DNA of 24,000 bases. Origin: Candidatus Saccharimonadales bacterium. GTDB taxonomy: Bacteria > Patescibacteriota > Saccharimonadia > UBA4664 > SCTI01. Position numbers and translations under genes: made by a program. Shown piece after piece: positions 3,577 through 20,317 of this stretch (its first letter is position 1; every line of letters begins with the position of its first letter). A model generated the notes under the pieces. That model searched no databases. It worked only from the letters and a program-made list of their open reading frames with translations, and had not been told where the DNA came from. The stretch is taken from NCBI GenBank assembly GCA_035510255.1, contig DATKHK010000030.1, forward strand, positions 3,345-27,344, read 5' to 3'.

Positions 3577-4455
3577 GTGGCCAATAAATCTCTGGAGGCC
3601 GAGGCGACGGCTCGGAAACGCGGTCAAATGCAAGCAGCCGGCTGGACGGTCGGCGTGGTGGTGGTAATTATCGTATTTATTCTGCTGGCTAAACTGGTCT
3701 CTAATGGCAGCTCCGGCGGCGGCACGGCTAGCAGCTCCGGGACTTCACCGGCGCCGGCTTCGTTGGTGGCCAAGGTCACCTCGCTAGAGGCAAGTGTGTT
3801 CGCGGCGGTTGGGCAGGGGAGCGCTACCTCGCTGCCCAAGCCGATTTCCGCACCGGCCCTGACCCAAAACGGCAAACCGCAAATTGTCTACCTTGGGGCC
3901 GAGTACTGCCCATATTGTGCCACCGAGCGCTGGCCAATGGTCATTGCGCTTTCACGCTTCGGTAGCTTCTCGAATCTTCAAACCACCCATTCCTCTTCCT
4001 CCGATGTCTACCCCAGCACCCAAACCTTCTCTTTCCATGGCGCTAGCTATAGCAGCCCATACATTGCCTTTACCGGTGTTGAGACCTACAGCAATGTACC
4101 GCAAGGTTCCGGCTACGCGCCGCTGGATACACCAACCTCGGCCGAGCAAAGCTTGCTCAATACCTACGATGCCCCGCCGTATGTTTCTTCCAGCTCCTCC
4201 GGTGCGATCCCGTTTGTCGATTTTGGCGGCAAGTACTTGATTTCCGGCGCTTCCTATAGCCCGCAGGTCTTGCAAGGTAAATCGGCTGATCAAATTGCCA
4301 GCGCGCTCAGCGATCCCTCGACCGATATCAGCAAAGGCGCTGTTGGTACCGCCAATGCCATTACGGCTGCCATCTGTAAAATGACCAACGACCAGCCCGG
4401 CAAGGTCTGCGGCACGTCGGTAATCCAAGGGCTTGAGCAAAAGCTTGGCGGGTAG
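3577..4455 (+). CDS. DUF929-type membrane-anchored thioredoxin-like protein with a CPYC active site
   Basis: GTG start preceded by GCGAGGAA. The N-terminal TM helix is [20 protein letters not shown], followed by a Ser/Gly linker. The block [33 protein letters not shown] is characteristic of DUF929. Confidence 0.8.
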
Positions 4456-4900
4456 GGAGGTGCCATTGCCGCGTTGGCTGGTGCCGGCGGCACTGGTGAT
4501 TATCGCGCTGGGTATTGGCGACACGGTCTATCTCACGATTGCCCATTACACTACTCCGGTTCTTCTCAGCTGCCCGGATACGGGGATCATTAACTGCGCC
4601 AAGGTTACGACGAGTAGTTACTCAAAAATTCTCGGCATCCCAGTGGCACTACTTGGTTTGATTTTTTTCCTGGGCAACCTGCCATTGCACCTGCCAGCCG
4701 CCTGGCGCTCGCCGAGTGTTTTAGTCCGCCGTCTGCGGCTGGCTGCCAGCGCCAGTGGTATCCTCATGGTGTTTTGGCTGTTGTATGTTGAGCTATTTCG
4801 TCTAAATGCCATCTGCTTATACTGCAGTACCGCCCACGTGCTGACGCTGCTCTTATTTATTGTGACGGTGTTTGGCACGGTTCTTACCAGCCAAGGTTAA
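4433..4900 (+). CDS. Vitamin K epoxide reductase (VKOR) family membrane oxidoreductase
   Basis: The protein has multiple TM helices. The loop Cys pair is [14 protein letters not shown] and the active-site Cxx[10 protein letters not shown], lies in the last helix region. The start is uncertain: TTG 4433, or GTG 4460 / TTG 4466 just after GGGAGG (4454-4459). The gene abuts or overlaps the DUF929 stop codon. Confidence 0.85.
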
Positions 4901-4949
4901 TGCCGATAAAAAGCTGGCTTGCAAATTTTCGAGACTGAAACGCTATTGC

Positions 4950-4978
4950 TTGAAATTTTGGAATAACACTTCTACTAT
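4950..4978 (+). promoter_or_regulatory. Sigma70-like promoter of the RiPP operon
   Basis: TTGAAA (4950-4955), a 17-nt spacer, then TACTAT (4973-4978). SD AAGGAG lies at 5011-5016, six nt before ATG 5023. Confidence 0.55.
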
Positions 4979-5022
4979 TGCGTCAGTTCGTTGACAAAAC
5001 AGATACATGAAAGGAGAAGGTC

Positions 5023-7203
5023 ATGGACCTTACAGATTTTCCGCTTGTCGTGATGTATGGCTTTCGCGCGTCTGCGGAGCGCTATACCTTTTTGGGACGC
5101 CAAGGCCATATCGATATACATGAGCATAGCGACGCCCTTGAAAAAATTCTACGTCTCTGTAGTGGATTGGCTACACTTGCGCAAGTCTGCCAAGCCAGCG
5201 AAGTTGAACAGGGTCTCTGCCTGCAGCTCATTGATGTCTTGGAGCAGAACGGTATCGTGATTGATAGCCGAAAGCTTTACCAGGTGTTTCATCAGGATTC
5301 TGCTAATCCAATGCAGTTTGGATCCGGTATTACGACTACAGGCCTGGAAAGTCTAATGAATCGGGCTGAGCAACGGGGCGTTGTTTCGATAGATGGCCGG
5401 GAGCAGGTCGACCTGCCGATCTGCTCAAATCTATTGGCTGGCGTCGATCAGCGCATCACAACCCGTGCGTTCGCAGGCCCCCTTCCGAGCCTACAAGCGA
5501 TTTCTAACGTGTTGGCTAGTGCCTACGGAATTGGAAAAGCTCATTGCGTGCCGTCGGCAGGAGGGTTATACCCGTTTAGTCTCTATTTTGTTGTCCAAGC
5601 AGTAAATCAGGTTCTGTCTCAAGGTGTTTACTGTTACAACCACCGATCACATTCACTTAGCTATTGCGGTATGCGAGATCGGTATCAAGTACAGGTTGCA
5701 CTAGATTCACTAGATATGTCTAACGGAGCGCCAATGGTAGTTTGCCTAGTTGCTTCAATGGACATAGTCGCAACTAAGTATGCCAATCGTGGATACCGCT
5801 ACGCCCTGATTGAGGCCGGACATATTGCGCAAAACATTCAACTGTTTTGCAGTTCGGAAGATTTTGGGGTTATGGAGTACGGTGGATTCGATGATAATCG
5901 GCTAAAGAAACTACTGGGGCTGGCTGGGGTTAATCAAATGCCTCTGTTGGCTCTCGGCGTTGGTAGGGTAGCGCAAGGCGAGGAGTCGCTTGATGCCGTG
6001 AAGCAAGCCGAGTATCAAGGGCTGACCGATGTTCTGGCTGGCAAGAGCAGCTTGCTGTATGGGCTAGCGCCTATTAAGGTGAAGTCAGACGATGACCTCT
6101 CCTTTTATGGGATGGTAGCTGAGTCGGCGTCGCCAGCCAGCTCGAAGAAGCCGCAATACGCGTTTGGCAGTGGGTACACTCGTCTTGATGCCGCAATTCG
6201 GGCTATGGGCGAGTGTTTTGAGCGCCATATTGGCTCCCAATTTCAGCAAGCTAGTAGCACGAAATGCAAAGCCTCCGACCTAGATGCGCCATATCTGTCT
6301 CCCAAAGATCTCACTCCATATACACCACAGCAAATCAAGAGACTGGGGGACATCTCGGCTTTTGATCCAGGGGCAGAGATGGTGTGGCTGCCGGGCTGTC
6401 AGTATCCTACAAAGACCAAGGTCTACATAGCAGCCGAGAATGTCTACTATCCAATCAGGGAGAGGGATCTAGGCCGCAAACCTTGTCACTTTGGCGACTC
6501 ATCTGGGTTGGCCTGCCACCCTGAGGCCTCGGCTGCTGTTATCGGTGGGTTGCTGGAGCTCATTGAGCGCGATGCGTTGATGGTTCATTGGTATGGCAAG
6601 AAAGTACCGCCAAAAATCCCAAACAAGGATCTGACTCATCATATTCGTTCACGTCTTGATTACTGGAAAGCTAAGGGGAAGACGGTCGAGGTGCTCGACC
6701 TGACTCTCGACAGTGTTCCAGTGGCATTGGTAGTGATTTACGGTGTTGGTTATCCTTATTTTACTGCCGGAGCAGCTGCCGAATTCAGCATGGAAGCGGC
6801 TATAGATAAGGGATTTCGTGAGGCTGAGCTCATGCTGGCTAGTTGGAGTACCGAGGCACCAACTTCCATCTCTCCAAAAGATATCTCAAGCCCAGAAGAT
6901 CATGGAGCCTATTATTTTGAGGAGGTAAATTTCTCAAAGCTTGAATGGTTGATGACCGGAGAGTATGGAGCCAGCGGGGCCAGCCAATGTAGTGCAGAGG
7001 ATCTGTTCTTGCGGTTTCAACCTGTAGTGGTAGAATTGCCTCATCAGTATCCAGTCCAACTAAAGGTGGTACGTGTTCTTTCTCAATTCCTTCTGCCTAT
7101 AAACTTCGGGTACGCCCGTGAGCTGGTAGCGCATCTGCGTTTTCAGCAACTCGGAATATCCTGGACACAGCCATACCCTGCAGTACCTCATTTTTTTTCC
7201 TGA
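5023..7203 (+). CDS. Tri-domain RiPP maturase: PqqD-like RRE, SagB-type FMN dehydrogenase and YcaO cyclodehydratase
   Basis: Residues ~10-80 (YTFLGRQGHIDIHEHSDALEKILRLCSGLATLAQVC..QLIDVLEQNGIVI) resemble a PqqD/RRE winged helix. Residues ~85-320 carry SagB/ThcOx motifs: LYQVFHQDS, TTRAF, VPSAGGLYPFSLYFVV, GVYCYNHRSHSL and NRGYRYALIEAGHIAQNIQL..GGFDD. Residues ~380-726 carry YcaO motifs: GSGYTRLDAAIRAMGECFERH and SSGLACHPEASAAVIGGLLELIERDAL. The C-terminus ends in the Pro-rich QPYPAVPHFFS. Confidence 0.9.
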   Translation: MDLTDFPLVVMYGFRASAERYTFLGRQGHIDIHEHSDALEKILRLCSGLATLAQVCQASEVEQGLCLQLIDVLEQNGIVIDSRKLYQVFHQDSANPMQFGSGITTTGLESLMNRAEQRGVVSIDGREQVDLPICSNLLAGVDQRITTRAFAGPLPSLQAISNVLASAYGIGKAHCVPSAGGLYPFSLYFVVQAVNQVLSQGVYCYNHRSHSLSYCGMRDRYQVQVALDSLDMSNGAPMVVCLVASMDIVATKYANRGYRYALIEAGHIAQNIQLFCSSEDFGVMEYGGFDDNRLKKLLGLAGVNQMPLLALGVGRVAQGEESLDAVKQAEYQGLTDVLAGKSSLLYGLAPIKVKSDDDLSFYGMVAESASPASSKKPQYAFGSGYTRLDAAIRAMGECFERHIGSQFQQASSTKCKASDLDAPYLSPKDLTPYTPQQIKRLGDISAFDPGAEMVWLPGCQYPTKTKVYIAAENVYYPIRERDLGRKPCHFGDSSGLACHPEASAAVIGGLLELIERDALMVHWYGKKVPPKIPNKDLTHHIRSRLDYWKAKGKTVEVLDLTLDSVPVALVVIYGVGYPYFTAGAAAEFSMEAAIDKGFREAELMLASWSTEAPTSISPKDISSPEDHGAYYFEEVNFSKLEWLMTGEYGASGASQCSAEDLFLRFQPVVVELPHQYPVQLKVVRVLSQFLLPINFGYARELVAHLRFQQLGISWTQPYPAVPHFFS

Positions 7204-7228
7204 CAACAAGAAAGGTAGTGCTAGTATC

Positions 7229-7408
7229 ATGCAGGCTCAAGACAGTATTAGGGTGAAGATTCGCCCATATGAGCACGCTCAACAGTCTGGCAGTGGCAGT
7301 AGCACAAGCGGCTGTGCTGGCAGCGGGAGCTGCGGCCATTCAGGTAACTCTCGAGGTGGGCCAACCACCCCTCTCGAGACAACCGATAGTGAGCATTCGG
7401 AGAGCTGA
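7229..7408 (+). CDS. Candidate azole-RiPP precursor peptide (59 aa), absent from the ORF track
   Basis: My translation is MQAQDSIRVKIRPYEHAQQSGSGSSTSGCAGSGSCGHSGNSRGGPTTPLETTDSEHSES*. The ORF starts 25 nt after the maturase stop on the same strand and sits upstream of the terminator. Residues 20-41 contain only S, G, T, C, A, H and N, with Cys29 and Cys35. The SD is weak (AAAGG, 13 nt upstream). Confidence 0.7.
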   Translation: MQAQDSIRVKIRPYEHAQQSGSGSSTSGCAGSGSCGHSGNSRGGPTTPLETTDSEHSES

Positions 7409-7492
7409 GGCAGTGGCATAAGCCGTCGCAGCAATGGGTGGTGCCAGGACTATAGATCCTATTAGGATTTGTGTTCTGGCACCATCTAATCC

Positions 7493-7526
7493 AAAAAGGT
7501 CTCGATATTCGAGGCCTTTCTTTTTT
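7493..7526. terminator. Bidirectional rho-independent terminator shared by the RiPP operon and the convergent metalloprotease gene
   Basis: AAAAA precedes the stem GGTCTCGA (7498-7505), loop TAT and stem TCGAGGCC (7509-7516). This gives 8 bp with one G-U pair. TTTCTTTTTT follows at 7517-7526. A/T tracts on both sides allow it to work in both orientations. Confidence 0.75.
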
Positions 7527-8166
7527 ACATAAAAACTTCAAGCAGCTTATCCGGCTCAATGGTAATGGAAGTCTTCAGGTCAAATTGCGGCAGGCTTTTC
7601 TTAGCGAGGGTATAGCCCAGAGAATACCCGATCCATTTACCATGCGGTCCGTTAAAAAACCATTGTGAATGATCATAGTCTTTTGAACCCCATTGCTTGC
7701 GTGCCTCATCCAGCGCCTCTACGGAAACATTCATCTCAGCCCATTTTGGTTTTGTGCCGCATCGAATCTCTTCGTAATAAGTTGCAAAACCTTCGCTTGT
7801 TAATGCTCCACCTAGCGTGCTGCCGTACCCCACAGTCTGCCACCGAGCCATGTGGTGCAGCTCGTGAGCAACCACTGCAATTAGCTCCTTTTGGGAAAGG
7901 TTTTTCCAGCTAGGGATCGCAATCATGGTTTCGGCGGGGAAGTAGGTATGGCCTCCTGGGTATTTACCCTCAATTGAAAGGGCTGGATTGTCGCGGATAT
8001 ATAGTATTTGCACGGGATTTTTAATGAAGCCTCTTAGTTTTGTAAACTCGTTTTCAACAATCCCCACCAGATCGCTGAAATCATAATCAGCTTTTTCATT
8101 ATTCAGTGCCACCAGACATAATGTCTTGCCGCTGACCTCGATTTTTCTTACAAAAAGTTTATCCAT
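7525..8166 (-). CDS. Putative Zn-metalloprotease (HExxH; DUF2268-like)
   Basis: The motif IAVVAHELHHMARW contains HELHH, with a downstream TSEGFATYYEE that could supply a third Zn ligand (Glu). No signal peptide is evident. The gene is convergent with the RiPP operon. Confidence 0.7.
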   Translation of the reverse strand: MDKLFVRKIEVSGKTLCLVALNNEKADYDFSDLVGIVENEFTKLRGFIKNPVQILYIRDNPALSIEGKYPGGHTYFPAETMIAIPSWKNLSQKELIAVVAHELHHMARWQTVGYGSTLGGALTSEGFATYYEEIRCGTKPKWAEMNVSVEALDEARKQWGSKDYDHSQWFFNGPHGKWIGYSLGYTLAKKSLPQFDLKTSITIEPDKLLEVFM

Positions 8167-8258
8167 ATCCTAAGTTTATACTGAATTCGGCTAGTCCGCA
8201 TTGTTGGCGGGTAAGACTACCCATACTTTGCGGCTTTCGTGAAAACCGGCCGAGAATA

Positions 8259-8267
8259 TGATACATT
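8259..8267 (+). promoter_or_regulatory. Extended -10-like element TGATACATT
   Basis: The element abuts ATG 8268. A second in-frame ATG at 8274 lies six nt past the hexamer, which fits a leaderless start. Confidence 0.35.
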
Positions 8268-8582
8268 ATGGTTATGTATAGAAAAGTCGCTGTAATTATG
8301 GGCAGCGTCATTGGGGCGGTAATCATTCTGGTGGCCGGCGGGACCTATGTTTTTCTAAAAACCACCTCTGGCAGCACTCCGAGTACCAGCGCCTCGGTCT
8401 CTAATCAATCGGCTAATTCGTCAGGTTCACAGGGCGGTAGCTCAACCGGTTCTTCTGGTAGTTCGACGCCGGGCTCCTCTAGCGGTGCATCTACGAGTAA
8501 CCAATCGATGTCCTCGCCCCATCCGCCACCCGCAGCGGCCACCGCATCTCATTCTCTTGCCACCCCGCTCATTAACTATTAA
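8268..8582 (+). CDS. Small membrane-anchored Ser/Gly/Thr-rich low-complexity protein
   Basis: The N-terminal TM helix is VAVIMGSVIGAVIILVAGGTYVF. About 60 aa of S/G/T-rich sequence follow, then a Pro/Ala tail. The start may be ATG 8274. I recognise no family. Confidence 0.55.
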   Translation: MVMYRKVAVIMGSVIGAVIILVAGGTYVFLKTTSGSTPSTSASVSNQSANSSGSQGGSSTGSSGSSTPGSSSGASTSNQSMSSPHPPPAAATASHSLATPLINY

Positions 8583-8770
8583 GCTAAGCGGCGATCTACA
8601 AAATAATTATATTGTAAAGTCAATAGAAAAAGTATTTACAATAATTCACAAATAGTTTATAACAAAGTTAAGCAGGCAGCGCTATAGCTAGCACTGGCTG
8701 TAGTACCCACAGGAGGCTTCGGCCTCACGACCCGGCCAGTACGCCGGCAGATGAAAGGAAGGTGAGCGCC

Positions 8771-9280
8771 ATGCGCGCGCTCAAGGATCGAGCCGGTAAA
8801 CCCGCAGAGAGGCTGGCGCTTGTTCTCTGCGGTGCTCTGGCTACGGCGCTCCTGATTGGCTTCCACGTGGAGGCCAAGACAGGCTCGCCAGTAAAGGCAG
8901 TCGCGGCTTCGGCCTCCTGCCAGTCGGACTTTCAGGGCGTTCCGTGTAAGGGGCCGATTCAGAGCCTCTACGCTTACGCCGGAGAAGGTAGTGGCGACAC
9001 CACCTATATTAAAGCTAAGGCAGGGAAGCAGAAAGTAGTTGGGGAACGGCTTGAAACCAATCCGCTCCCCAGGAACTACAGAGTGACGCAGCGTACCTTC
9101 ACCTGGCATTCACGCTCAAACATCGAAATCGTGGCTGTCTACGTGATACATAGGCCACTACGAGGCCACCCGACCTACCAAAAACTATCTACCGGCCGGC
9201 ATAGCGGCCACGCGACGTTGACGTTTGTGGGTGGCGGGACCCCGCCGCTTCTGCTCTTGCAAGGTCGGCATGGCCACTAA
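8771..9280 (+). CDS. Hypothetical small secreted protein (uncertain; the locus could instead be a structured RNA)
   Basis: ATG 8771 follows GGAAGGTGA. The N-terminus MRALKDRAGKPAERLALVLCGALATALLIGFHVEA looks like a signal peptide. The C-terminal third has odd composition and rare codons. The opposite strand is also open (8657-9109). TTTACA-17 nt-TATAAC at about 8635-8663 could be its promoter. Confidence 0.35.
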   Translation: MRALKDRAGKPAERLALVLCGALATALLIGFHVEAKTGSPVKAVAASASCQSDFQGVPCKGPIQSLYAYAGEGSGDTTYIKAKAGKQKVVGERLETNPLPRNYRVTQRTFTWHSRSNIEIVAVYVIHRPLRGHPTYQKLSTGRHSGHATLTFVGGGTPPLLLLQGRHGH

Positions 9281-9284
9281 GGTA

Positions 9285-9316
9285 GGGTGCCTCCCGCTTC
9301 CGAGCGGGAGGCACCC
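9285..9316 (+). terminator. Perfect 14-bp GC-rich hairpin after the 8771-9280 locus
   Basis: GGGTGCCTCCCGCT, loop TCCG, then AGCGGGAGGCACCC. The downstream T tract is weak (CACTTATTTCATCTC). Confidence 0.55.
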
Positions 9317-9410
9317 ATCTCCGCACTTATTTCATCTCATCGAGATGGGTCTTGCTCAATCAGCTCAAAATGGTTAAGCTTGACGTAAGTACTAACTGTG
9401 AGAAGGTTGC

Positions 9411-12400
9411 TTGCGTTTCAAAAGTATTGTTGCAATTGCTGTTGGAGTCAGCCTAGTTGTATTCGCTCCTGCTCTTCAGCGAGTGGGTTCACGGCTGCTC
9501 GCCCACGTTCCAGCCGCCTACGCGGCAAGTAAGGAAGACCCCCTGGGGGCAGGTAGCGACAGCGGCAGTGCACGTGATGACGCGGGTGGGCTGAGCGTCA
9601 CGGCAACCGACCCAAATGGCAATCCTGTGGGGGGGAGTGGTGCACCTATCTACCGAGGTGAGACGATTACTGTAACTCTGAGCTATACGGTTGCCCATCC
9701 CAGCGGCAGTACCTGGGATGCCTGGATGAACTTCGACAACCTTAGCCTCGACGGATGCTCTGACCCCACAAACGCTGGTACCTGGGGAGCGGGCTGTCTA
9801 GAGAATCAGTCAGGGTCGTCAACCTCGCAAGAGCTAGACGATGCTTTCGATACCAATGGCGGCGACAATGGGAATGTCGAGCAGAACGACAACTGCCCCT
9901 CATTTTATGACAACAGCGACTCTCCCTATGCCGATACTTCGCAGGAAACGAATGGCACAACACCTTTATTTGGCTTAGACTTCCCCTGGTCGGGAGGGTC
10001 TGGCACGGACGGCCACTCAACCTGTGGAACGGAGGGATGGGCGGCGGTATGGCATGGTGTGCATATGGATACCGTTGGCCAAAAAAACTATAGTGTAACC
10101 TACCACGTCAATCCTGACTTTGGGGCGGCGAACCAACAGCTCTGCGTCTCTGGCGATATCACACTGGGAGACGTCCAGGGTCTCTCGAACAACTCTGGCG
10201 ACCTCTACTACCGCACCAACGCCAACTCCCTTTGCCTTACCGTCAACGTACCGACAACCATCTCCGGTAACGTCCAATCCGATCCGTACGCTTCCACTGG
10301 CAAGAAATTTGGCAGCCAGACCAACATCGTTTCGGTAAGTGCCAACTGCCAGTACAATGACATTAATTCGGGTGATGGTGGCGGATATGTTTCCACTGAC
10401 GGAAGTGGAGCCTATAGCTTTGGCTGGTTCCAGGGCCAGCCGTTTTGTATAGGCCCGAACACTGAAGGTCCAAACGCGGCCAGTGCCTATACGTGGGTCT
10501 ATGACGGCACGACCTATATTAATGTCCAGCCTCCGAGTACATATTCTGGTGCTTCTGGGTTAGCCAATGATCCGCCAAACGGCAGTAATCCCAACACGTG
10601 GTCCACCTGGACCGATGCTCAGAGCTGTGGTCCCGGCGACCCCGATCCTACACACTGTGGCGGCTACAATATCTACTGGTTGGCTGGGGGTAACGCGCCC
10701 AATATAACCAAGACCGAGGTCTCACCGGGCAACGGCGCCAATCTGACACCTGGCGAAGCCGTAACCTACTCTGTCACTCTCGATAACCCCTATGACTACA
10801 ATATCAATTACGGAGGGGGCAACTCTGTGGGTATGGATGACTATGTCCCTAATAATATCGACCCCACGACGACCGGTGGGCCGAGTTATAGCATTGGTGG
10901 TAGCCCCGACCCGACCGGTAGCGTTCCGGGTGGGTGGTCGGTATCGGGTGTCATACCCTGCTACAGCATTAGTTATGGGCTTACTGGTCACCAGAACCTC
11001 GCGGGAGCTGGTTGTACCGCGCCCAATAGCGGCGTGGAAGGGGTAGCGTTTACCATATTGCCGGCTTATAGTTCCGTAACGATGACCTGGACGGGTACGG
11101 TTAAAACTGCGGCTGACATTGGGGTATACCCAGAGTATTTCCAGAGCGCTGCCGATCAAGCCCACGCCCAAGACCCTAACTGTAATGCCGCTTATGGCGA
11201 TGCGACCGGCCTCATGCCCTATTGCGAAGACTTTACCAATGGGCTGGAAGGCGTCTATAACGTGGCCGGGTATTTGGACCAAAACGGCAACTGGACGCCC
11301 TCGAATTCAACCTACAATCCGATCCCGGCAGCGGTTGATTGCCTGAGTAAGTACGCTGTTGGGCTGCAGCAGGATGACAGCGACACGGCGACCGTTAACA
11401 GCTGTAGTAGCGGCACACAGCCCCAATACTATGCCTATGTTAGTGGGCGCAATGACTATAACGGGCTAACTAATGGTGGCGCTATAGAAATCCAGGTCAC
11501 GCCCGATCCGAACCAAGGCCCCTTGTTCTACCAGCTTTACGACCAATCCTCAACGCAAGGGCTGGATCCCAACATTACCGTTCAGCCGGTATCCTCGCCG
11601 CTAATGACGAACGGAGTGACCGCCGGCTGTAGCAGCGGCTGTGGCGGCGGCGCCGGGCCGGTGGTTGGCTGGGCTGGCGGTAACGGCGAAGAGCTGTATG
11701 GGAGTGGGGCCGAGGGCAGCTATACAATCCCGATAACCTTAGCCAATAGCACCACTGCTATCGGTGGCAGAAATGAGAATACCTCTGATTTATGCATAAT
11801 TCAGTACTGGGCCAGCGGCCATCCGCTTAACTGTAATCCGGCCACCGAAGCCGGGGGCACTAGCGATCCCTCTGTGCCAATTTACTTCACCCATTACGAT
11901 GACCTGTCACCCTATCTGACGACCAGCGGCGGCGACGTCCACGCCGGCGGCTGCAACCAAGACACCACTACCGGCCAGTGTGCTACCCAGGCCAGCAGTG
12001 TCTGTCCATCTAGCGACCTCGGTAACAACGCGCCAGAGTTCGATAATACGGTCTTTAATAATAATCCCGACTCTAACACCATTGGCCAATACTTGGTGAC
12101 GGCTGGTGATAACCTCTCTGGCAATCCGTATGCCGGTACTTCGGCGGGTGTGCTGAGTGGCTCGAGTAACCTTTCGACAGCCAACGATACCGGTGTGATT
12201 ATTCGGCCCAACCTGTGTGGCGCGGCCACAGCCTACGCCGCTAAGCAGGGCGGGACGATTATCGCCGGTGCAGGTGTACTTAACGCTGGTGGCCAAAATG
12301 GGCCCAGCGGCAGCTTCCGCGACGATCCCGATATTTCCAGCGACCACTCCGGGTTGCCAGCCATGGAGTCCAGCCCCGACTCGAAGGTTATTACCGCCGA

Positions 12401-12965
12401 TCCACCGAGCGGCACCTACACGCTGGGTAGCTCGGACCCCAACAATCCAGCTACCATCGAGATCAACCATCGTTGGACGCTCTACGTTACCGGCAACCTC
12501 TACATCAACGCCAATATTAGTTATGGCTCCAACAATCCTACCGGAACCGGACTTAACGCTGAGCAGAACCATCCCTCGTTCGGGGTGATCGCCACCGGCA
12601 ACATCTATATCGGTAAAGACGTTACCAACCTTAGCGGCTTTTACACCTCGGCGGGCGTGATCAACACCTGCGCCGACGTTAACGGCAGTAGCTTGTCTTA
12701 CCAGGTTGGCGGCGGCGGCCCTGGCCCGGGCTCCGGTTCATATACGACGACCGACTGTGCTGACGAGTTGACGGTGCAAGGCATTATGTACGCCGACACC
12801 TTCCGCTTTAACCGCACCACTGGCTACAACACCACCACGCCGACCGTTTCCGAGAGCATTGACTATGACAATCGGCTATACACCGCCACGCCGCCAGCCT
12901 TCAACGACCTTGTAGGCTCCAGCCTGCTTTCTAAGTACTTAATAGAGCCTCTGCCAAGGTATTAA
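9411..12965 (+). CDS. Giant secreted Gly/Asn/Ser/Thr-rich, Cys-containing surface protein (candidate adhesin) with a DUF11-like repeat-domain segment
   Basis: TTG start after GAGAAGG. The signal peptide is MRFKSIVAIAVGVSLVVFAPAL...AAYA. The segment ITKTEVSPGNGANLTPGEAVTYSVTLDNP resembles the DUF11 'conserved repeat domain' signature. The C-terminal region has beta-helix-like periodicity (LYVTGNLYINANISYG...GVIATGNIYIGKDV). There is no LPXTG motif. Confidence 0.8.
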   Translation: MRFKSIVAIAVGVSLVVFAPALQRVGSRLLAHVPAAYAASKEDPLGAGSDSGSARDDAGGLSVTATDPNGNPVGGSGAPIYRGETITVTLSYTVAHPSGSTWDAWMNFDNLSLDGCSDPTNAGTWGAGCLENQSGSSTSQELDDAFDTNGGDNGNVEQNDNCPSFYDNSDSPYADTSQETNGTTPLFGLDFPWSGGSGTDGHSTCGTEGWAAVWHGVHMDTVGQKNYSVTYHVNPDFGAANQQLCVSGDITLGDVQGLSNNSGDLYYRTNANSLCLTVNVPTTISGNVQSDPYASTGKKFGSQTNIVSVSANCQYNDINSGDGGGYVSTDGSGAYSFGWFQGQPFCIGPNTEGPNAASAYTWVYDGTTYINVQPPSTYSGASGLANDPPNGSNPNTWSTWTDAQSCGPGDPDPTHCGGYNIYWLAGGNAPNITKTEVSPGNGANLTPGEAVTYSVTLDNPYDYNINYGGGNSVGMDDYVPNNIDPTTTGGPSYSIGGSPDPTGSVPGGWSVSGVIPCYSISYGLTGHQNLAGAGCTAPNSGVEGVAFTILPAYSSVTMTWTGTVKTAADIGVYPEYFQSAADQAHAQDPNCNAAYGDATGLMPYCEDFTNGLEGVYNVAGYLDQNGNWTPSNSTYNPIPAAVDCLSKYAVGLQQDDSDTATVNSCSSGTQPQYYAYVSGRNDYNGLTNGGAIEIQVTPDPNQGPLFYQLYDQSSTQGLDPNITVQPVSSPLMTNGVTAGCSSGCGGGAGPVVGWAGGNGEELYGSGAEGSYTIPITLANSTTAIGGRNENTSDLCIIQYWASGHPLNCNPATEAGGTSDPSVPIYFTHYDDLSPYLTTSGGDVHAGGCNQDTTTGQCATQASSVCPSSDLGNNAPEFDNTVFNNNPDSNTIGQYLVTAGDNLSGNPYAGTSAGVLSGSSNLSTANDTGVIIRPNLCGAATAYAAKQGGTIIAGAGVLNAGGQNGPSGSFRDDPDISSDHSGLPAMESSPDSKVITADPPSGTYTLGSSDPNNPATIEINHRWTLYVTGNLYINANISYGSNNPTGTGLNAEQNHPSFGVIATGNIYIGKDVTNLSGFYTSAGVINTCADVNGSSLSYQVGGGGPGPGSGSYTTTDCADELTVQGIMYADTFRFNRTTGYNTTTPTVSESIDYDNRLYTATPPAFNDLVGSSLLSKYLIEPLPRY

Positions 12966-13011: not shown

Positions 13012-14052
13012 ATGGGACTATTTTCAAAAGAGGTGGATTACTTTGGCGTTGATATCGGAGCCGGCACTATCCGATTGGTTCAGCTAAAGAAAGGCGCCCA
13101 AAAGCCAATACTACAAACCTATGGGTCGGTGCCGGTTGACCCGAGCTGGGTGCAAGCTGATTCGCCGGCCGATATTCCGCGTATCGCCGGTGTGCTCAAG
13201 CAGCTCGTCAAGGACACGAAGGTTTCGACCAAGTATGTCATCGCCGGACTACCTTCTTCAAAGGTTTTTTCCAGCGTGATTTCGACCCCCAAGCTCAGTC
13301 ATCAGGAGCTGGGGAAGGCGATTATGTTGCAAGCCGACCAGTACATTCCGATGGCGGTTAAGGATGTGAAGCTGGATTGGGTGGTGATTGGACCCGGTAA
13401 GACCGAAAAAGAGCAGCAGGTCCTGGTGGTGGCAGCGCCCAACACCGTGACCGAGCGCCAGGTTAGTATTTATGAACAGGCCGGTTTGGAGTTGGTAGCA
13501 CTGGAGCCAAACGCGGTAGCACTGGCCCGCGCAGTAGTGCCGCCGGGAGACCTAGCGGTGCTAGTACTTGATATTGGTAGCCTGTCGGCTGACATCACCA
13601 TTGTTCAAGGCAATATACCCAAGCTGTTGCGGTCGATTAATATCGGTGGCGTTTCATTGGTGCGGGCGGCCTCCCAAGGCCTCGGCCTTGATGAAGCCCA
13701 GGCCGACCAGTTTGTGCGCAAATTTGGCCTGACCCAAACCAAACTTGAGGGCCAGGTTTACAAAGCCCTTAAGCCGGTGCTTGACCAATTGGTTGAGGAG
13801 ATTGATAAGTCGGTAAAGTTTTTCCAGAGCCAGTACCCCACAATCAAGTTCGAGAAACTGGTACTTACTGGCGGTACAACCGGCATGCCGGAGCTGCCAA
13901 CCTACCTCTCTACGGCGGTGGGCTTACCGGTTGAGATTGCCAACGCCTGGGCCAAGGTCGGGTACGCCGCCACCCTTCAAGATTCGCTCATGGGCAATGC
14001 TACTGAGTTTGGCGTGGCTGTCGGTTTGGCGGAGCGAGACCTATTGGTATGA
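13012..14052 (+). CDS. pilM: Type IV pilus assembly protein PilM (actin-like ATPase fold)
   Basis: The N-terminus reads YFGVDIGAGTIRLVQLKK. Downstream are VLDIGSLSADITIV and the C-terminal LVLTGGTTGMPELPTYLS. Length and position before the pilN/O-like genes fit PilM. Confidence 0.9.
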   Translation: MGLFSKEVDYFGVDIGAGTIRLVQLKKGAQKPILQTYGSVPVDPSWVQADSPADIPRIAGVLKQLVKDTKVSTKYVIAGLPSSKVFSSVISTPKLSHQELGKAIMLQADQYIPMAVKDVKLDWVVIGPGKTEKEQQVLVVAAPNTVTERQVSIYEQAGLELVALEPNAVALARAVVPPGDLAVLVLDIGSLSADITIVQGNIPKLLRSINIGGVSLVRAASQGLGLDEAQADQFVRKFGLTQTKLEGQVYKALKPVLDQLVEEIDKSVKFFQSQYPTIKFEKLVLTGGTTGMPELPTYLSTAVGLPVEIANAWAKVGYAATLQDSLMGNATEFGVAVGLAERDLLV

Positions 14053-14636
14053 ACGTACGGCTCAACCTTGCCCCGGAAGTTTATCAGGCTAGCCAGCGGG
14101 CTAAGCAGCGTAAACAGCTGGCTACCAGCATTGGCGTGCTGGTGTCTGCAGTAAGCGTAGGCATAGTGGTGGTGAGCCTGATAATCCTTGGCGGCCAAAA
14201 AGTCTTACTGGCAGCTCTTAATAACTCGGTAAAACAGCGCCAAAACAAGGTATCCCAGTATGCCGAGCTAGGAACCGCCGCTACCGCCCAGCAGCACTTG
14301 CAGGCCTGGTCTCAGTTGGCTGGCACCCAGGGTCATTTCAGTAATTTCTTTCAGATTCTCCAAGATTTCGCACCGCAAGGAGTAGCTGCTACCCAGGTGA
14401 GTGTAGATAACACCAATACCATTACGATGACCGGTGACGCCAACTCATACGACCTGGTAACCAAGTTTGCCAAAGCTCTAGAGGCTAGCAATGTTCAGGT
14501 CGGTCCGTCGCACGCTGCCACCAATCAGCCATACTTTACCAATGTGCAACTCAGCAACGTGAGCAATAATGGTAGTGATGGTATTGGCTTCCAGTTAACC
14601 ACCACCATGTCGAGCGAGGTGACCAGTGGCCAGTAA
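14049..14636 (+). CDS. pilN: PilN-like type IV pilus alignment protein
   Basis: The ATG overlaps the pilM stop (ATGA). The N-terminal LNLAPE resembles the INLLP motif. A basic stretch, a single TM helix (IGVLVSAVSVGIVVVSLIIL) and a coiled region follow. Confidence 0.7.
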   Translation: MNVRLNLAPEVYQASQRAKQRKQLATSIGVLVSAVSVGIVVVSLIILGGQKVLLAALNNSVKQRQNKVSQYAELGTAATAQQHLQAWSQLAGTQGHFSNFFQILQDFAPQGVAATQVSVDNTNTITMTGDANSYDLVTKFAKALEASNVQVGPSHAATNQPYFTNVQLSNVSNNGSDGIGFQLTTTMSSEVTSGQ

Positions 14637-15318
14637 AGCTGCACCCGCGAAGAAGCCGGCTGCCACCACTCCGCCCTCTCAGGCAGTGGTGAAGCGCGAT
14701 AGTAAGGCCAATAATTACATCGCGGTGATTGCGGTCGTTACCGTACTCGTGGTGTTGGTGTGTGGGTTAGCTGCCAAATCTCTCCTAGGATCAATAATCC
14801 TTGATGGCAAGCTGATTGTGCATACCAACCAAGCTAAAACCGATTTGGATACTAAGCTACGGAACATACCTATTTTGATTAGCAACTATAACGCGTTAGG
14901 AAGCAAGCAACAGCTCATCGCCGATGCCCTGCCAAATGACCCTGATTTTCCGGCGCTGATTAGCATTGCTCAGGCCATGAGTGCCGACTCAGGGCTAACC
15001 CTCAAGTCGATCTCGCCTGATAACAGTGCTTCTAATACCGCTGTCAACCCAGGTGCCGTTGGTGCCGCTGTCACTCCGGGAGCCACTACATCTGTATCGA
15101 GCACCAAGCCAACTCCCTACTTGTTCGACGTAGAGGTGGCTGGCACCTATCCCCAAGTGGTGCACTTCTTTGATGACGTGCAGCTTTCGGCCCGGCCGAT
15201 GAAGGTAGTTAACACTGATTTTAACGGCGATGGCTCGGCGCTACAGGTCTCAATCATACTCCAGACCTATTACCAGGGCGCGGCCAATACCAATGACAAG
15301 ACGGAGACGCTCAAATGA
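14626..15318 (+). CDS. pilO: PilO-like type IV pilus alignment protein
   Basis: The GTG start overlaps the pilN end. There is a single TM helix (YIAVIAVVTVLVVLVCGLAA) and a coiled segment. LIADALPNDPDFPALISIAQAMSADSGLTLKSISP resembles the PilO core. Confidence 0.65.
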   Translation: MASKAAPAKKPAATTPPSQAVVKRDSKANNYIAVIAVVTVLVVLVCGLAAKSLLGSIILDGKLIVHTNQAKTDLDTKLRNIPILISNYNALGSKQQLIADALPNDPDFPALISIAQAMSADSGLTLKSISPDNSASNTAVNPGAVGAAVTPGATTSVSSTKPTPYLFDVEVAGTYPQVVHFFDDVQLSARPMKVVNTDFNGDGSALQVSIILQTYYQGAANTNDKTETLK

Positions 15319-15587
15319 AAAGTAAAGAAATCGTTGAGCTAGTAGTAGCAGTATTGATTCTAGCGATTGCTGGATATGTTGTGTACAAGATAGTAGTGCC
15401 ATCGTCCCCAAGCAGTTCCGGGGCTAGTCATACAGTTACCTACGTGCAGGTGACACCGGTCGATCCCAATTTTGACTCTAACAGCCTTAACGAACTAGGG
15501 GATAGCAGTAAGGTGCGTGACTTCTATAGCCCGCCAGATCTTAGTAGTGGGCTCAATAACAGTCAGCCCTTTGGCCCCCTTCAGTAG
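15315..15587 (+). CDS. Small single-pass membrane protein, pilus-cluster associated, unknown family
   Basis: The ATG overlaps the pilO stop (ATGA). The TM helix is IVELVVAVLILAIAGYVVYKIVV, followed by about 60 periplasmic or extracellular residues. Confidence 0.5.
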   Translation: MKSKEIVELVVAVLILAIAGYVVYKIVVPSSPSSSGASHTVTYVQVTPVDPNFDSNSLNELGDSSKVRDFYSPPDLSSGLNNSQPFGPLQ

Positions 15588-15615
15588 AATCAGAGCGACT
15601 ATAGCGTACCGCTTA

Positions 15616-15624
15616 TGCTAAAAT
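15616..15624 (+). promoter_or_regulatory. Extended -10-like element TGCTAAAAT upstream of pilB
   Basis: This is a TGnTAAAAT match, followed by AGAAGGAG (15632-15639) and ATG 15658. Confidence 0.4.
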
Positions 15625-15657
15625 AGGCATAAGAAGGAGTACCCTGAGACTATACCC

Positions 15658-17415
15658 ATGCTGAGCGTAGAGAGTGAAAAACAGATAGAGCAGTTGCTGC
15701 TTGAGCAAAAGATCATTCAGGTTAATCAGCTTGATGAGTTAAGGGCTCGGGCAGCTCAACAAGGTGAGCCGTTACTAAGCATTATCCAGCAAGCCGGCTT
15801 AATCGATGATGAGGCTATGGCCAAGGTTTCAGCTCAGGCTAGTGGCGTGCCGTATGCCAATCTTTCCGAGGTAACGGTGCCGCCAGAGCTGCTGGCGATG
15901 CTACCGAAAGAACTGGCCGAAAACTACCGGGCTGTCGTTTTCGGCAAGACCGGCGGCCGGATTGCGGTAGCCATGGTCGATCCCACCAATGTGCAGGCGG
16001 TGGACTTTCTGGCGCACAAGATTGATAAACCGATCGCAACCTTCATGGCCTCCCAAACTGCCATTGAGCATGTGCTCCTCCAGTACTCGGCCGAAATCGC
16101 CGCTGACATTAAGCAGGCGATCCAGAGCACTGCCGATGAGCGCACCCCCGGCGAGGCCAAAAAGGTACAGAACCTGGTACAGGATGCGCCGATCACCCGG
16201 GCTCTTAATACCATCTTGGAGTACGCTGCTAACGCACGGGCTTCCGACATCCATATCGAGCCGCGTGAAAAGGATCTGCGTATCCGTTTTCGGATTGACG
16301 GGGTACTGCTGGAGGCGATGCGTCTACCAAAATCGATTGAGCCGGCCCTGATTTCGCGGATTAAAATTCTCTCCAACCTAAAAATCGATGAACATCGCAT
16401 TCCCCAGGATGGCCAGTTTGTGGTGCGGGTGGGCAAAGCTGAGATTGACCTGCGTATCGCCATATCGCCAGTGGTCTGGGGAGAACAGGTGGTGATCCGG
16501 TTGCTTAATAAAGATAACTCGCTGTTGACCCTAGAAAAGCTCGGCTTTCATGGGCGGGCTTTCCGGGCTATCCTGGCTGGCGTCCATCGTCCGCACGGTA
16601 TGACACTGGCGACCGGCCCGACCGGTTCCGGTAAGTCCACCACGCTGTATGCACTGCTCCAGGCCATTAAGAGTGTCCAGATCAACATTGTTACTCTTGA
16701 GGATCCGGTGGAGTATAAGATGGAGGGTGTTAACCAGATCCAGGTTAACACCGACGTCGGGCTAACCTTTGCCAGCGGTTTGCGCTCGATCCTGCGTCAG
16801 GACCCCAACGTTATTATGGTTGGGGAGATCCGCGACCAGGAGACCGGTAACCTGGCCGTCCAGAGCGCGTTGACCGGCCATGTGGTGCTCTCTACCATCC
16901 ATACCAACTCGGCTGCCGGTGTTTTGCCCCGGCTCTTGGATATGCAGGTAGAGCCGTTCCTGGTGGCTTCTACGGTCAACGCTGTCATTGGCCAGCGCTT
17001 GGTCCGTCGCGTCTGTGATAACTGCAAGCAACAACGGCCGGCAACCGAGGCAGAGATCGAATCCATTCATCATACGCTGGAAGCTTTACTGCCTAAATCA
17101 GAGGGTGACATCAAGGTGAAAGAAGATTTAGGGTACGACTTCTTGCCATTAGCCGGTCAAAACGCTTATACTTTATATGAAGGCAAAGGTTGCAAGAAAT
17201 GCAAGGAGGGATACAAGGGGCGCGTGGGAATTTATGAGGTTTTTTCAATGAGCGAGGGAATGGAGCATCTTTTGAGCAAGAAGGCGACTACCTCTGAGGT
17301 GCAAACTCAAGCCCAGGGTGATGGCATGATAACCATGAAACAGGATGGATACCTAAAGGCGCTGAACGGGGTGACCACGCTCACCGAGGTAGCTCGAGTG
17401 GCGTCGGATACATAA
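15658..17415 (+). CDS. pilB: Type IV pilus extension ATPase PilB (GspE family)
   Basis: The protein has an N-terminal T2SSE_N-like domain, Walker A GPTGSGKST, Walker B/Asp box IMVGEIRD and His box GHVVLSTIHTN. The tetra-Cys Zn motif is CDNCK...CKKCKEGYKGR. Confidence 0.95.
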   Translation: MLSVESEKQIEQLLLEQKIIQVNQLDELRARAAQQGEPLLSIIQQAGLIDDEAMAKVSAQASGVPYANLSEVTVPPELLAMLPKELAENYRAVVFGKTGGRIAVAMVDPTNVQAVDFLAHKIDKPIATFMASQTAIEHVLLQYSAEIAADIKQAIQSTADERTPGEAKKVQNLVQDAPITRALNTILEYAANARASDIHIEPREKDLRIRFRIDGVLLEAMRLPKSIEPALISRIKILSNLKIDEHRIPQDGQFVVRVGKAEIDLRIAISPVVWGEQVVIRLLNKDNSLLTLEKLGFHGRAFRAILAGVHRPHGMTLATGPTGSGKSTTLYALLQAIKSVQINIVTLEDPVEYKMEGVNQIQVNTDVGLTFASGLRSILRQDPNVIMVGEIRDQETGNLAVQSALTGHVVLSTIHTNSAAGVLPRLLDMQVEPFLVASTVNAVIGQRLVRRVCDNCKQQRPATEAEIESIHHTLEALLPKSEGDIKVKEDLGYDFLPLAGQNAYTLYEGKGCKKCKEGYKGRVGIYEVFSMSEGMEHLLSKKATTSEVQTQAQGDGMITMKQDGYLKALNGVTTLTEVARVASDT

Positions 17416-17424
17416 GGAATTATT

Positions 17425-18480
17425 ATGAAAATAGAGCTAATGCTAGAAGAAGTCGTTAAAAAGGTCGCCTCAGATCTGCACATTCAGGTGGGGTTGCCGC
17501 CGATGCTGCGGGTGGATGGGGCGCTGACACCAATACGCGATGCGCCGGTACTCAAGCCCGAGGACGTGGAGCGTCTCGTGCTGTCGGTACTCGATGATGA
17601 GCAGCAAGCCATATTTGAAAAGGACAAGGAAATTGATACCTCCTTTAGCTTCGGAGAGTATGGCCGTTTTCGGGTGAACGCCTTTCATGAGCGCGGTAAC
17701 TGTGCTGCCGCCCTACGGCTGATTCCCACTAAAATCCCTTCACTCCAAGAACTCGGCCTGCCCAAGGTCGTCAGTAGCTTTGCTGATTTCCCCCGTGGGT
17801 TGGTATTGGTTACCGGCCCAACCGGTTCCGGCAAGAGTACTACTTTGGCCTCCCTGGTTGAAAAGATCAATAGTGAGCAGGCCAAGCACATTATTACCAT
17901 TGAGGATCCGATTGAGTACAGTCACCATTCTAAGAAATCAATCGTGGTTCAGCGGGAAATCCACTTTGATACCTATTCTTTCGGTAATGCCTTGCGCTCC
18001 AGTCTGCGCGAAGATCCGGATGTGGTGTTGGTGGGGGAGATGCGCGACCTGGAAACCATATCTTCGGCCATTACGTTGGCGGAGACCGGCCATCTCGTAC
18101 TGGCTACGCTTCATACCAATGGCGCCGCCCAATCCATTGATCGCATGATTGATGTCTTCCCGCCATTCCAGCAGCAACAGGTTCGGGTTCAGGTCGCCAG
18201 CATGCTGCAAGCCATCTGTTCCCAGCGGCTGGTGCCAAAGATTGCCGGCGGCCGCATTGCGGCGGCAGAGATTCTAGTGGTAACGCCGGCTGCCCGCAAC
18301 ATTATTCGTGAAGGTAAGACCCATCAGCTTGATTCGGTCATTCAAACCGGCGTTGAAGACGGTATGCAGAGCATGGACCGTACCCTGGTAAGCCTGATCC
18401 ATAACGGCACTATAACCTATGAAGAGGCCAAGAATGTGGCTATCGATATTGACGAGCTAGATCGGTTGATGCGCGCATGA
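17425..18480 (+). CDS. pilT: Type IV pilus retraction ATPase PilT
   Basis: The 351-aa protein carries SDLHIQVG.PPMLRVDG, GPTGSGKSTTLASL, IITIEDPIEY, VLVGEMRD and GHLVLATLHTNGA. It lacks an N-terminal GspE_N domain. Confidence 0.95.
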   Translation: MKIELMLEEVVKKVASDLHIQVGLPPMLRVDGALTPIRDAPVLKPEDVERLVLSVLDDEQQAIFEKDKEIDTSFSFGEYGRFRVNAFHERGNCAAALRLIPTKIPSLQELGLPKVVSSFADFPRGLVLVTGPTGSGKSTTLASLVEKINSEQAKHIITIEDPIEYSHHSKKSIVVQREIHFDTYSFGNALRSSLREDPDVVLVGEMRDLETISSAITLAETGHLVLATLHTNGAAQSIDRMIDVFPPFQQQQVRVQVASMLQAICSQRLVPKIAGGRIAAAEILVVTPAARNIIREGKTHQLDSVIQTGVEDGMQSMDRTLVSLIHNGTITYEEAKNVAIDIDELDRLMRA

Positions 18481-19739: not shown

Positions 19740-19747
19740 TAAAATGC

Positions 19748-19776
19748 TTGACAGCATAACTACTTTGCCTAATACT
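19748..19776 (+). promoter_or_regulatory. Sigma70-like promoter of the major pilin gene
   Basis: A consensus TTGACA (19748-19753) is followed by a 16-17 nt spacer and TAATACT (19770-19776). A strong SD, AAGGAGGTGA, lies at 19829-19838. Confidence 0.6.
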
Positions 19777-19845
19777 GAGAAGCAAGTAGTATATTAACTT
19801 AACAGTATCATTATTGATTTCGACAACTAAGGAGGTGAGAACCTA

Positions 19846-20268: not shown

Positions 20269-20294
20269 ACGTTAGCTAACGGTCTCTGCCAAAT

Positions 20295-20317
20295 GCCGCC
20301 CTTCGGGGCGGTTTTTG
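20295..20317 (+). terminator. Rho-independent terminator after pilA
   Basis: CCGCCC, loop TTCG, then GGGCGG, followed by TTTTT (20312-20316). Confidence 0.8.

Follow-up and report, generated by a model that had tools for sequence, protein, structure and literature searches.

For YcaO enzymes that form azolines, the prevailing view is that both the binding of the precursor peptide's leader and catalytic activation require a partner protein of the E1-like or Ocin-ThiF kind. The recognition element (RRE) found in pathways for peptides that are made on ribosomes and modified after translation (RiPPs) consists of a three-stranded sheet at the N terminus and, after it, a winged-helix bundle of three helices, and it takes up the leader as an extra strand. 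The locus described here lies in a 24,000-nucleotide stretch of Candidatus Saccharimonadales DNA (contig DATKHK010000030.1), which is called the window throughout. It is a cassette of three genes, encoding a 726-amino-acid enzyme with an RRE-like, a SagB-type dehydrogenase and a YcaO domain, a 59-amino-acid precursor peptide, and a DUF2268 protein. With a probability of roughly 0.75, this cassette specifies a linear azole-containing peptide (LAP) pathway of the thiazole/oxazole-modified microcin (TOMM) type, in which the RRE would bind the leader, the YcaO domain would cyclodehydrate the core, the SagB domain would oxidize it, and the DUF2268 protein would cleave the leader.

Several described systems share parts of this arrangement. 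The microcin B17 synthetase McbBCD of E. coli likewise combines a YcaO protein, a SagB-type dehydrogenase with a Lys-Tyr pair, and a leader-binding RRE (PMC6395948). Its substrate also has a Gly/Ser/Cys-rich core, and McbB, McbC and McbD are all among the structural or sequence matches of the window enzyme. However, McbBCD is assembled from three proteins in a B4C2D2 octamer rather than from one chain, and its RRE is carried by the E1-like McbB, which also activates McbD and for which the window enzyme has no corresponding domain. Furthermore, microcin B17 has many more heterocyclizable sites than the window core with its two Cys residues, and its leader is removed by TldD/E, whereas the candidate for that role here is the DUF2268 protein.

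The cyanobactin enzymes LynD and TruD, which are fusions of the E1-like (C) and YcaO (D) proteins, place an N-terminal RRE and a C-terminal YcaO domain on one chain, and Foldseek ranks them first for the whole enzyme model as well as for the isolated N-terminal domain. They differ in having an E1-like domain between RRE and YcaO and no dehydrogenase, whereas the SagB domain occupies the middle position here. Other cyanobactin features are missing from the window, which encodes no PatA/PatG protease, no peptidase S8 or PatG domain, and no C-D fused heterocyclase. The N-terminal half of the enzyme is paralleled by the cyanobactin oxidase ThcOx and the bacillamide nonribosomal peptide synthetase oxidase BmdC, in which an RRE-like domain, a linker and a nitroreductase fold follow one another. 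In the profile search, BmdC aligns to positions 50-310 with E = 3e-26 and ThcOx is found with E = 1e-11; both also match the N-terminal domain model. Unlike the window enzyme, these proteins are stand-alone oxidases, or are fused to PatG in other pathways, they have no YcaO domain, and the RRE copies of ThcOx are regarded as non-binding. In curacozole biosynthesis, an azole dehydrogenase (B) is fused to a cyclodehydratase partner (PMC11575548), but this protein, CzlBC, joins B to C and acts together with CzlD, a YcaO protein of its own, whereas the window has a B-D fusion and no C.

A 2015 survey of TOMM clusters defined them by the C protein, and the only fusions it listed were of the C-D and PatG-oxidase kinds (PMC4603692). 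No characterized B-D fusion was found in the literature searched, in agreement with the original prediction, which knew of none lacking a C protein; an earlier mention may nevertheless exist. In the candidate phyla radiation (CPR), LAP clusters do have a precedent. Sharrar et al. (2020) described a cluster with a YcaO protein, a nitroreductase, a peptidase and an 84-amino-acid precursor in a Microgenomates metagenome-assembled genome (MAG), and counted 110 similar clusters in 93 further CPR genomes, or 94 genomes with their own MAG (PMC7298704). The phyla named there are Microgenomates, Parcubacteria, Peregrinibacteria and Katanobacteria; Saccharibacteria are not listed (PMC7298704). A RiPP pathway in a reduced-genome lineage, which had been expected to be unusual, is therefore not without precedent.

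The clusters of Sharrar et al. share with the window cassette the combination of YcaO, nitroreductase, peptidase and short Ser/Cys-rich precursor, with no C protein mentioned, and two loci with split genes found in the present analysis (L024 and L025, see below) look like that type. They differ in having separate genes, whereas the cassette examined here has a fused enzyme with an RRE-like domain, a Saccharimonadales host, and a peptidase of the DUF2268 family. That published description contains neither a fused enzyme nor an RRE, and it does not identify the peptidase as DUF2268.

The enzyme gene (5023-7203, plus strand, ATG start) encodes a protein with an exact match in NCBI, HUC86888.1, a 'YcaO-like family protein' from a Candidatus Saccharimonadales MAG. 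Its translation contains every motif by which its two halves had first been recognized, namely TTRAF, VPSAGGLYPFSLYFVV, YRYALIEAGHIAQN and GGFDD, then GSGYT..AAIRAMGECFERH and SSGLACHPE..LLELIERDAL. Searches with hidden Markov models (HMMs) are significant for both halves. The Pfam Nitroreductase model matches residues 142-315 (E = 5e-16), and TIGR03605, the NCBIfam model for SagB dehydrogenases, passes its curated cutoff of 78.4 bits with a score of 98.6. Pfam YcaO (PF02624) matches residues 382-644 with E = 2.7e-38, and its 132.6 bits exceed the cutoff of 25.7. The best YcaO model in NCBIfam is TIGR03604, which represents SagD-type, azoline-forming proteins (124 bits, E = 6e-36), whereas the McrA-thioamidation model TIGR03266 reaches 57 bits against a cutoff of 365 and the generic YcaO model reaches 37 bits.

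An AlphaFold2 (AF2) model of the whole enzyme (mean predicted local distance difference test score, pLDDT, 82.9; predicted template-modeling score 0.75) lays out strands and helices at residues 8-81, a disordered linker at 93-134, a nitroreductase fold at about 137-340, and a YcaO fold at about 345-726. The SagB-type dehydrogenase domain, with its flavin mononucleotide (FMN) cofactor type, is encoded at 5428-6042 (residues ~136-340), and the YcaO domain, which ends in the Pro-rich tail PYPAVPHFFS, at 6055-7200 (residues ~345-726), both on the plus strand. Profile searches of the PDB match the dehydrogenase domain to 3eo7, BmdC, McbC and ThcOx, and the best Foldseek matches of the YcaO domain are LynD, TruD, MusD, McrA-type YcaO proteins and McbD. 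No E1-like domain was found in the enzyme, either by Pfam and NCBIfam scans or in the AF2 model. Nitroreductase and YcaO folds are both dimeric in known structures, and the enzyme is for this reason most likely a homodimer.

Residue conservation was assessed in 14 homologs at 27-32% identity. Invariant positions of the dehydrogenase domain are R148, P177-S178-x-G180, K252-Y253, R256, R259, E264 and G266, with K252-Y253 aligning to the KY of BmdC; in McbC, the Lys-Tyr pair is the proposed catalytic dyad (PMC6395948). Invariant in the YcaO domain are E397/E400/R401, S493-x-G495, E512/E515/R516 and P722-H723, which make up two ExxER motifs, an S-x-G turn and a Pro-His C-terminal tail. Matching roles have been described for McbC and McbD, the latter having Mg-binding Glu residues, a Ser/Thr turn and a C-terminal tail as its conserved elements (PMC6395948). 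Relatives of the enzyme end in PHPFA, PHPFP or PHPLA.

The original prediction spoke of a tri-domain maturase and described only its dehydrogenase and YcaO halves; both are confirmed, and the third domain that it left undescribed is the RRE-like one at the N terminus. This domain (residues 8-81; 5044-5265, plus strand) is modeled as four strands followed by three helices, with the same topology in both AF2 models, including that of the domain alone (pLDDT 86.3). Ten of its 12 best Foldseek matches in the PDB are RiPP enzymes with leader-binding or RRE-like domains, while BmdC and a methyltransferase, PKMT1, make up the remaining two. The best match is TruD (E = 4.5e-3, TM score 0.60, root-mean-square deviation 2.7 Å over 81 columns), and others are LynD, TigE, McbB, ThcOx, lasso-peptide B1, MccB and MadB, with TM scores of 0.55-0.62. 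The assignment of residues 8-81 as an RRE-like domain is well supported, not proven; it rests on predicted structure because searches with sequence alone gave marginal matches. In all homologs and in the split forms the domain is kept, together with invariant P7, C46, G48 and F89.

The precursor gene lies at 7229-7408 on the plus strand and encodes MQAQDSIRVKIRPYEHAQQSGSGSSTSGCAGSGSCGHSGNSRGGPTTPLETTDSEHSES. Both it and the enzyme gene are at the places originally given for them. The 59-codon open reading frame (ORF) has been passed over in the databases, as can be seen from the consecutive NCBI accessions of the genes that flank it, and its exact amino acid sequence is absent from about 15 billion proteins. 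The peptide can be divided tentatively into a leader of about residues 1-19 with the stretch IRVKIRPYE, a core of about residues 20-40 (SGSGSSTSGCAGSGSCGHSGN) containing Cys29 and Cys35, and an acidic tail of residues 41-59; the boundary between leader and core is a proposed one. Together, Ser, Gly, Cys, Thr and Asn account for 51% of the residues.

The surroundings of homologous enzymes (28-36% identical) were fetched and then scanned for short ORFs. Almost every full-length locus examined has an ORF of 32-75 amino acids situated 10-90 nucleotides downstream of the enzyme gene; in a few, the short ORF stands just upstream of the enzyme gene or after the next gene. Besides the window, such an ORF adjoins the enzyme in the loci numbered L001, L003, L005, L007-L016, L018-L023, L030, L044 and L052, which span Patescibacteria, Mycolicibacterium and Proteobacteria. 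The conserved companion ORF that the original prediction called for is therefore present, and it is Cys/Ser/Gly-rich. What these peptides have in common is an N-terminal stretch of alternating hydrophobic residues, with motifs such as RVKIRPYE, KVRIKPYD, KVxVK, FSWTVTA and FEWRVTV, and a C-terminal region rich in Cys, Ser and Gly.

Examples of these peptides are MKKIKVRIKPYDKSISVSSTASNQSSNGCTGSGHSGGK (L003), MKKEFKVSVKRTPHEQFKVQCSSNCQSANGCQSSCGHSGK (L001), ...SANGCASSCGHSGSHIPPAPPRK (L019), MKTKALTVKVTKKAVMGSAARSNGSCSSGNSSNGSSHASTPRS (L005), ...GGGSHCGGGSGGGNCGSGGSGCAGGSCGSGCGGGSCGSGCSK (L014), ...SLSWKVSVKPRRAGRSAVPMGCSCCGGK from Betaproteobacteria (L022), and MDDLSTLDVVIETRTQ...GGGGGGCHIRTED from Mycolicibacterium (L015). 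The C..GHSG motif of the window peptide recurs in L001, L003, L009 and L019, and both motif and position (RVKIRPYE/KVRIKPYD; C..GHSG) are kept among loci with enzymes of no more than about 30% identity. In L014 and L030, the poly-Gly/Cys/Ser cores bear a resemblance to McbA, the microcin B17 precursor, which serves as a lead only. One locus, L010, has two precursor genes (7184-7435), the second of which was found by the precursor HMM.

A jackknife HMM was built from 10 small ORFs of other loci, leaving out that of the window. Among the 351 window ORFs of at least 20 amino acids, its sole match is 7229-7408 (E = 2.3e-8; next best 0.32), and the window's remaining Ser/Gly-rich ORFs receive no score. 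When 7,869 short ORFs from 90 loci were searched with the precursor HMM, no match fell away from the enzyme-adjacent positions, and none was found among the small ORFs of about 50 unrelated loci with only a YcaO or only a SagB gene. The model, which is of the CPR type, misses the proteobacterial and poly-Gly precursors; these are recognized by position and composition only.

The third gene of the cassette lies on the minus strand at 7525-8166 and encodes a 213-amino-acid DUF2268 protein with an HExxH motif (HELHH ... SEG; Pfam DUF2268, E = 5.7e-19; NCBI HUC86889.1). According to a local HMM made from this protein and five relatives, a homolog adjoins the enzyme gene in 17 distinct loci, on either strand; one of these is in a Bdellovibrionales MAG (L021), where the assignment was confirmed with Pfam. 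The original description of a self-contained operon with only two ORFs must accordingly be widened, since the DUF2268 gene also shares a candidate terminator with the precursor gene. No characterized member of DUF2268, a family named as a predicted Zn-dependent protease, was found in the literature searched. The protein is probably a leader peptidase, putatively Zn-dependent.

A segment of this region has a close counterpart elsewhere. Positions 7438-9639 of the window are 99.6% identical over 2.2 kb to positions 4526-6728 of a 306-kb contig (L089). The shared part contains the terminator, the DUF2268 gene, the ORF of a Ser/Gly-rich membrane protein of 104 amino acids, a region without assignment and the initial 229 nucleotides of a 1184-amino-acid ORF; identity ends 30 nucleotides past the precursor stop codon, and the contig is without the fusion enzyme. 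The flanks of the segment on that contig have 60-69% guanine plus cytosine (GC), and their proteins cluster with Solirubrobacteraceae (Actinomycetota), whereas the segment itself has about 51% GC, like the window. A second contig (9.7 kb) has the same junction proteins. Either the segment passed very recently from a Saccharimonadales epibiont into the genome of an actinobacterium, possibly its host, or it reflects an assembly chimera. That the window contig is itself chimeric at 7438 is ruled out by an independent assembly from another run (L090), which has the same order of VKOR, fusion and DUF2268 genes.

The architecture of RRE, SagB and YcaO domains in one chain is not rare. In a profile search of 1.84 billion cluster representatives, at least 150 clusters formed at 50% identity match at E < 1e-136, and most of the family members listed are 690-790 amino acids long, match from end to end and come mainly from Patescibacteria. 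In the species representatives of GTDB, the enzyme is encoded by one full-length ORF in Saccharibacteria (Microsaccharimonas and Nanosyncoccus among them), in Magasanikiibacteriota and in other Patescibacteria, and also in Mycolicibacterium sp. 120266, Cupriavidus sp. H19C3, Reyranella, Bdellovibrionales, and MAGs of the Beta- and Gammaproteobacteria type. In two loci the enzyme is split. One from Yanofskybacteria (L024, 158-2908) has a 323-amino-acid RRE-SagB gene that overlaps a 504-amino-acid YcaO gene by 4 nucleotides, followed by the precursor gene. The other, from Saccharibacteria (L025, 3778-7652), has an RRE-SagB gene of about 325 amino acids, a 618-amino-acid YcaO gene about 20 nucleotides downstream, and a DUF2268-like gene. 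The fusion thus appears as one state of a system with B and D and no C, and the coexistence of split and fused forms points to repeated gene fusion or fission.

The link to DUF2268 is not universal. In place of the DUF2268 gene, the proteobacterial loci L016 (5431-6423) and L018 (5951-6928) have a gene for a YheC/D-like ATP-grasp protein, which directly follows the precursor gene, and the proteobacterial locus L022 has a HlyD exporter. Two tandem fusion paralogs are present in the Cupriavidus locus (L052, 5660-7927), and in L001 an M16 peptidase is additionally encoded, together with a radical-SAM/SPASM enzyme (3926-6501). Overall, the cassette is real, coherent and well conserved.

Searches on a wider scale also gave no C protein. 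Among ORFs of at least 110 amino acids in the 24 kb, none encodes an E1-like C protein (TIGR03603/TIGR03882) or an Ocin-ThiF-like F protein, and none of the window ORFs scanned matches TfuA. Likewise, no C or F protein was found within 4 kb on each side in the approximately 20 fusion loci inspected, and TfuA is not encoded near the homologs either. In view of the structural models, the built-in RRE-like domain plausibly stands in for the missing E1-like protein; no separate C protein would be needed, because leader recognition would be built into the enzyme itself.

On this basis, the following pathway is proposed. The N-terminal RRE-like domain would bind the strand-like leader stretch IRVKIRPYE of the 59-amino-acid precursor. 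The leader joins the RRE sheet of McbB and LynD as a further strand (PMC6395948), and a domain of this kind would bind the conserved strand-like motif of the precursor leaders. The YcaO domain, using adenosine triphosphate (ATP), would then convert Cys29, Cys35 and probably some neighboring Ser and Thr residues of the core to azolines, which the SagB-type FMN domain would oxidize to thiazoles and oxazoles. The enzyme would most likely act as a homodimer, without a separate E1-like C protein, and the convergently encoded DUF2268 protein would probably remove the leader. The product is probably an antibiotic-like modified peptide.

A number of observations weigh against this azole pathway, some in general and others in favor of particular alternatives. 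No transporter or immunity gene is near the cassette, as had been pointed out before, and the proposed core has only two Cys residues. A PxPxP C terminus is canonical for azoline-forming YcaO proteins (PMC12338566), a pattern that the variant PYPAVPHFFS only approximates. The DUF2268 gene is not strictly dedicated to the cassette, given its near-identical copy without the enzyme on contig L089. Furthermore, the azole chemistry is something that we infer. The HMM matches and the conserved adjacent ORF sustain the TOMM-like core of the original prediction.

Doubt can also be raised about the RRE. Azoles might be made with an RRE-like domain that is vestigial, either by an enzyme that is independent of the leader or with the help of an unlinked E1-like or Ocin-ThiF partner. 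Such domains on the dehydrogenases of cyanobactin, LAP and thiopeptide pathways have been described as possibly vestigial (PMC7470986), and ThcOx has two RRE-like domains (PMC6395948). The Foldseek E-values of the N-terminal domain are weak, none being better than 4.5e-3, and a profile of 12 such domains gave only marginal matches to PqqD and winged-helix proteins when compared with PDB and Pfam (PqqD in Pfam, E = 0.15; 5sxy in the PDB, E = 2). In addition, the genome data at hand are the 24-kb window, and the gene for a C or F protein may lie outside it. Against a vestigial domain stand the lack of C and F genes within 4 kb on each side in the fusion loci inspected, the small size of patescibacterial genomes, the retention of the domain and its invariant residues in every homolog and split form, and the strand-forming N-terminal motif of the precursors, whose conservation across phyla implies recognition. 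This alternative is judged unlikely.

Slightly less probable again is a different chemistry, in which the YcaO domain would carry out another kind of amide activation (thioamide or amidine formation, or MusD-like ATP-dependent cleavage) and the nitroreductase-fold domain would have another redox role. Azoline oxidation is the only known task of a SagB-type domain, and the fused domain is specifically of that type, with TIGR03605 above its cutoff and the Lys-Tyr pair invariant. Several findings nevertheless speak for a departure from azole formation. The closest solved YcaO structure by profile-to-PDB search is the thioamide-forming, McrA-modifying MJ1094 (E = 2.8e-25), followed by the peptidase-type MusD, and the 124-bit score of the SagD-type model TIGR03604 is well under its trusted cutoff of 219. 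The lack of an E1-like partner is shared with standalone YcaO proteins of the bottromycin type (PMC4603692), and the cores in L005, L007 and L011 have a single Cys. On the other side, TIGR03604 scores far above the thioamidation model (124 versus 57 bits), TfuA is absent from the window ORFs scanned, and the cores resemble azole peptides in their abundance of Gly-Cys and Gly-Ser, reaching poly-Gly/Cys/Ser in L014 and L030.

Finally, it is very improbable that the 59-codon ORF is a chance low-complexity frame and the true substrate another, unlinked protein: the peptide is unannotated anywhere, antisense ORFs overlap its gene, and Ser/Gly-rich low-complexity stretches occur in other window proteins (3577-4455 and 8268-8582), but the jackknife HMM rules out low-complexity noise by selecting this ORF and no other Ser/Gly-rich one, homologous ORFs keep position and motif beside highly diverged enzymes, and unrelated YcaO-only and SagB-only loci yield no matches.

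Signals for transcription and translation of the azole-peptide cassette can be proposed from the DNA itself. A putative sigma-70-like promoter, TTGAAA-17 nt-TACTAT (4950-4978, plus strand), lies in the 122-nucleotide gap between the VKOR stop codon (at 4900) and the fusion start codon. This sequence is present where it was originally reported. Its identity as a promoter is unproven, however, since it has 9 of 12 consensus matches and six sites as good occur in the region against 4.8 expected from shuffled sequences, which is no enrichment. A ribosome-binding site, AAAGGAG (5010-5016, plus strand), is found 6 nucleotides 5' of the enzyme ATG. The consensus scan also gave a second promoter-like site, CTGACA-16 nt-(TG)TAGTAT (7200-7227, plus strand), which overlaps the end of the enzyme gene directly 5' of the precursor gene and might drive separate, higher transcription of the latter. 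The bidirectional terminator claimed at 7493-7526 has a good candidate in a hairpin at 7495-7519, functional in principle on both strands, with an 11-bp stem (-17 kcal/mol, z = -3.9), an A-run on its 5' side and a T-run on its 3' side, so that each strand carries a T-run. It is plausibly common to the precursor gene and the convergent DUF2268 gene.

The Saccharimonadales assignment agrees with the remainder of the window, where VKOR is encoded along with a type IV pilus operon and the GC content is about 53%. Upstream of the cassette (3577-4900), the gene for a membrane-anchored DUF929 protein (292 amino acids, CPYC motif) overlaps that for a VKOR-family protein (155 amino acids) by 23 nucleotides, and the two are likely a disulfide-bond-forming pair. 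This pair was considered as a part of the cassette and rejected, as it is absent beside the enzyme in those loci of other organisms for which called genes are listed. Downstream lie several features without assignment: a 104-amino-acid ORF that combines a single transmembrane helix with a long Ser/Gly/Thr tail (8268-8582), a 620-nucleotide stretch that has long ORFs on either strand and matches no protein or Rfam family (8657-9280), a perfect 14-bp hairpin following it (9285-9316), and a 1184-amino-acid ORF with no Pfam or NCBIfam match (9411-12965). A complete type IV pilus set occupies 13012-23887 and comprises PilM, PilN, PilO, a PilB-like ATPase, a PilT-like ATPase, PilC, a prepilin peptidase and three pilins with N-methyl motifs, one of them of 710 amino acids. 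The window has no Rfam match and no tRNAs.

The core of the original interpretation is right; what has to be added is a third domain, a third gene and the earlier reports from the CPR. Taken further, the findings might describe a self-sufficient azole synthetase on a single polypeptide, with an RRE borne by the dehydrogenase, serving a large, uncharacterized RiPP family that has 'hxVxV' leaders and a dedicated DUF2268 peptidase and that forms the main azole-peptide system of Saccharibacteria and other Patescibacteria. The chances of this joint reading being correct are about even. If it is, the enzyme would be the first azoline-forming YcaO that is independent of an E1-like or Ocin-ThiF partner, and the products would range from the GHSG-type core to microcin-B17-like poly-Gly/Cys/Ser cores. 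It would also be the smallest complete azole synthetase known, comprising one gene and a substrate gene, and would offer a convenient means of introducing thiazoles and oxazoles into peptides of one's own design. Moreover, RRE-like domains on SagB-type dehydrogenases, which are often dismissed as vestigial, could then be functional.

There are consequences for annotation and for the biology of these organisms as well. Gene callers systematically miss the precursor genes of this family, which can be found by their position and leader motif. Patescibacteria have a minimal metabolism and an epibiotic lifestyle. For Saccharibacteria and other ultra-small members of this group, the system would be a widespread and cheap route to modified peptides, which might act on the bacterial hosts or the competitors of the epibionts and could shape their interactions with hosts and rivals.

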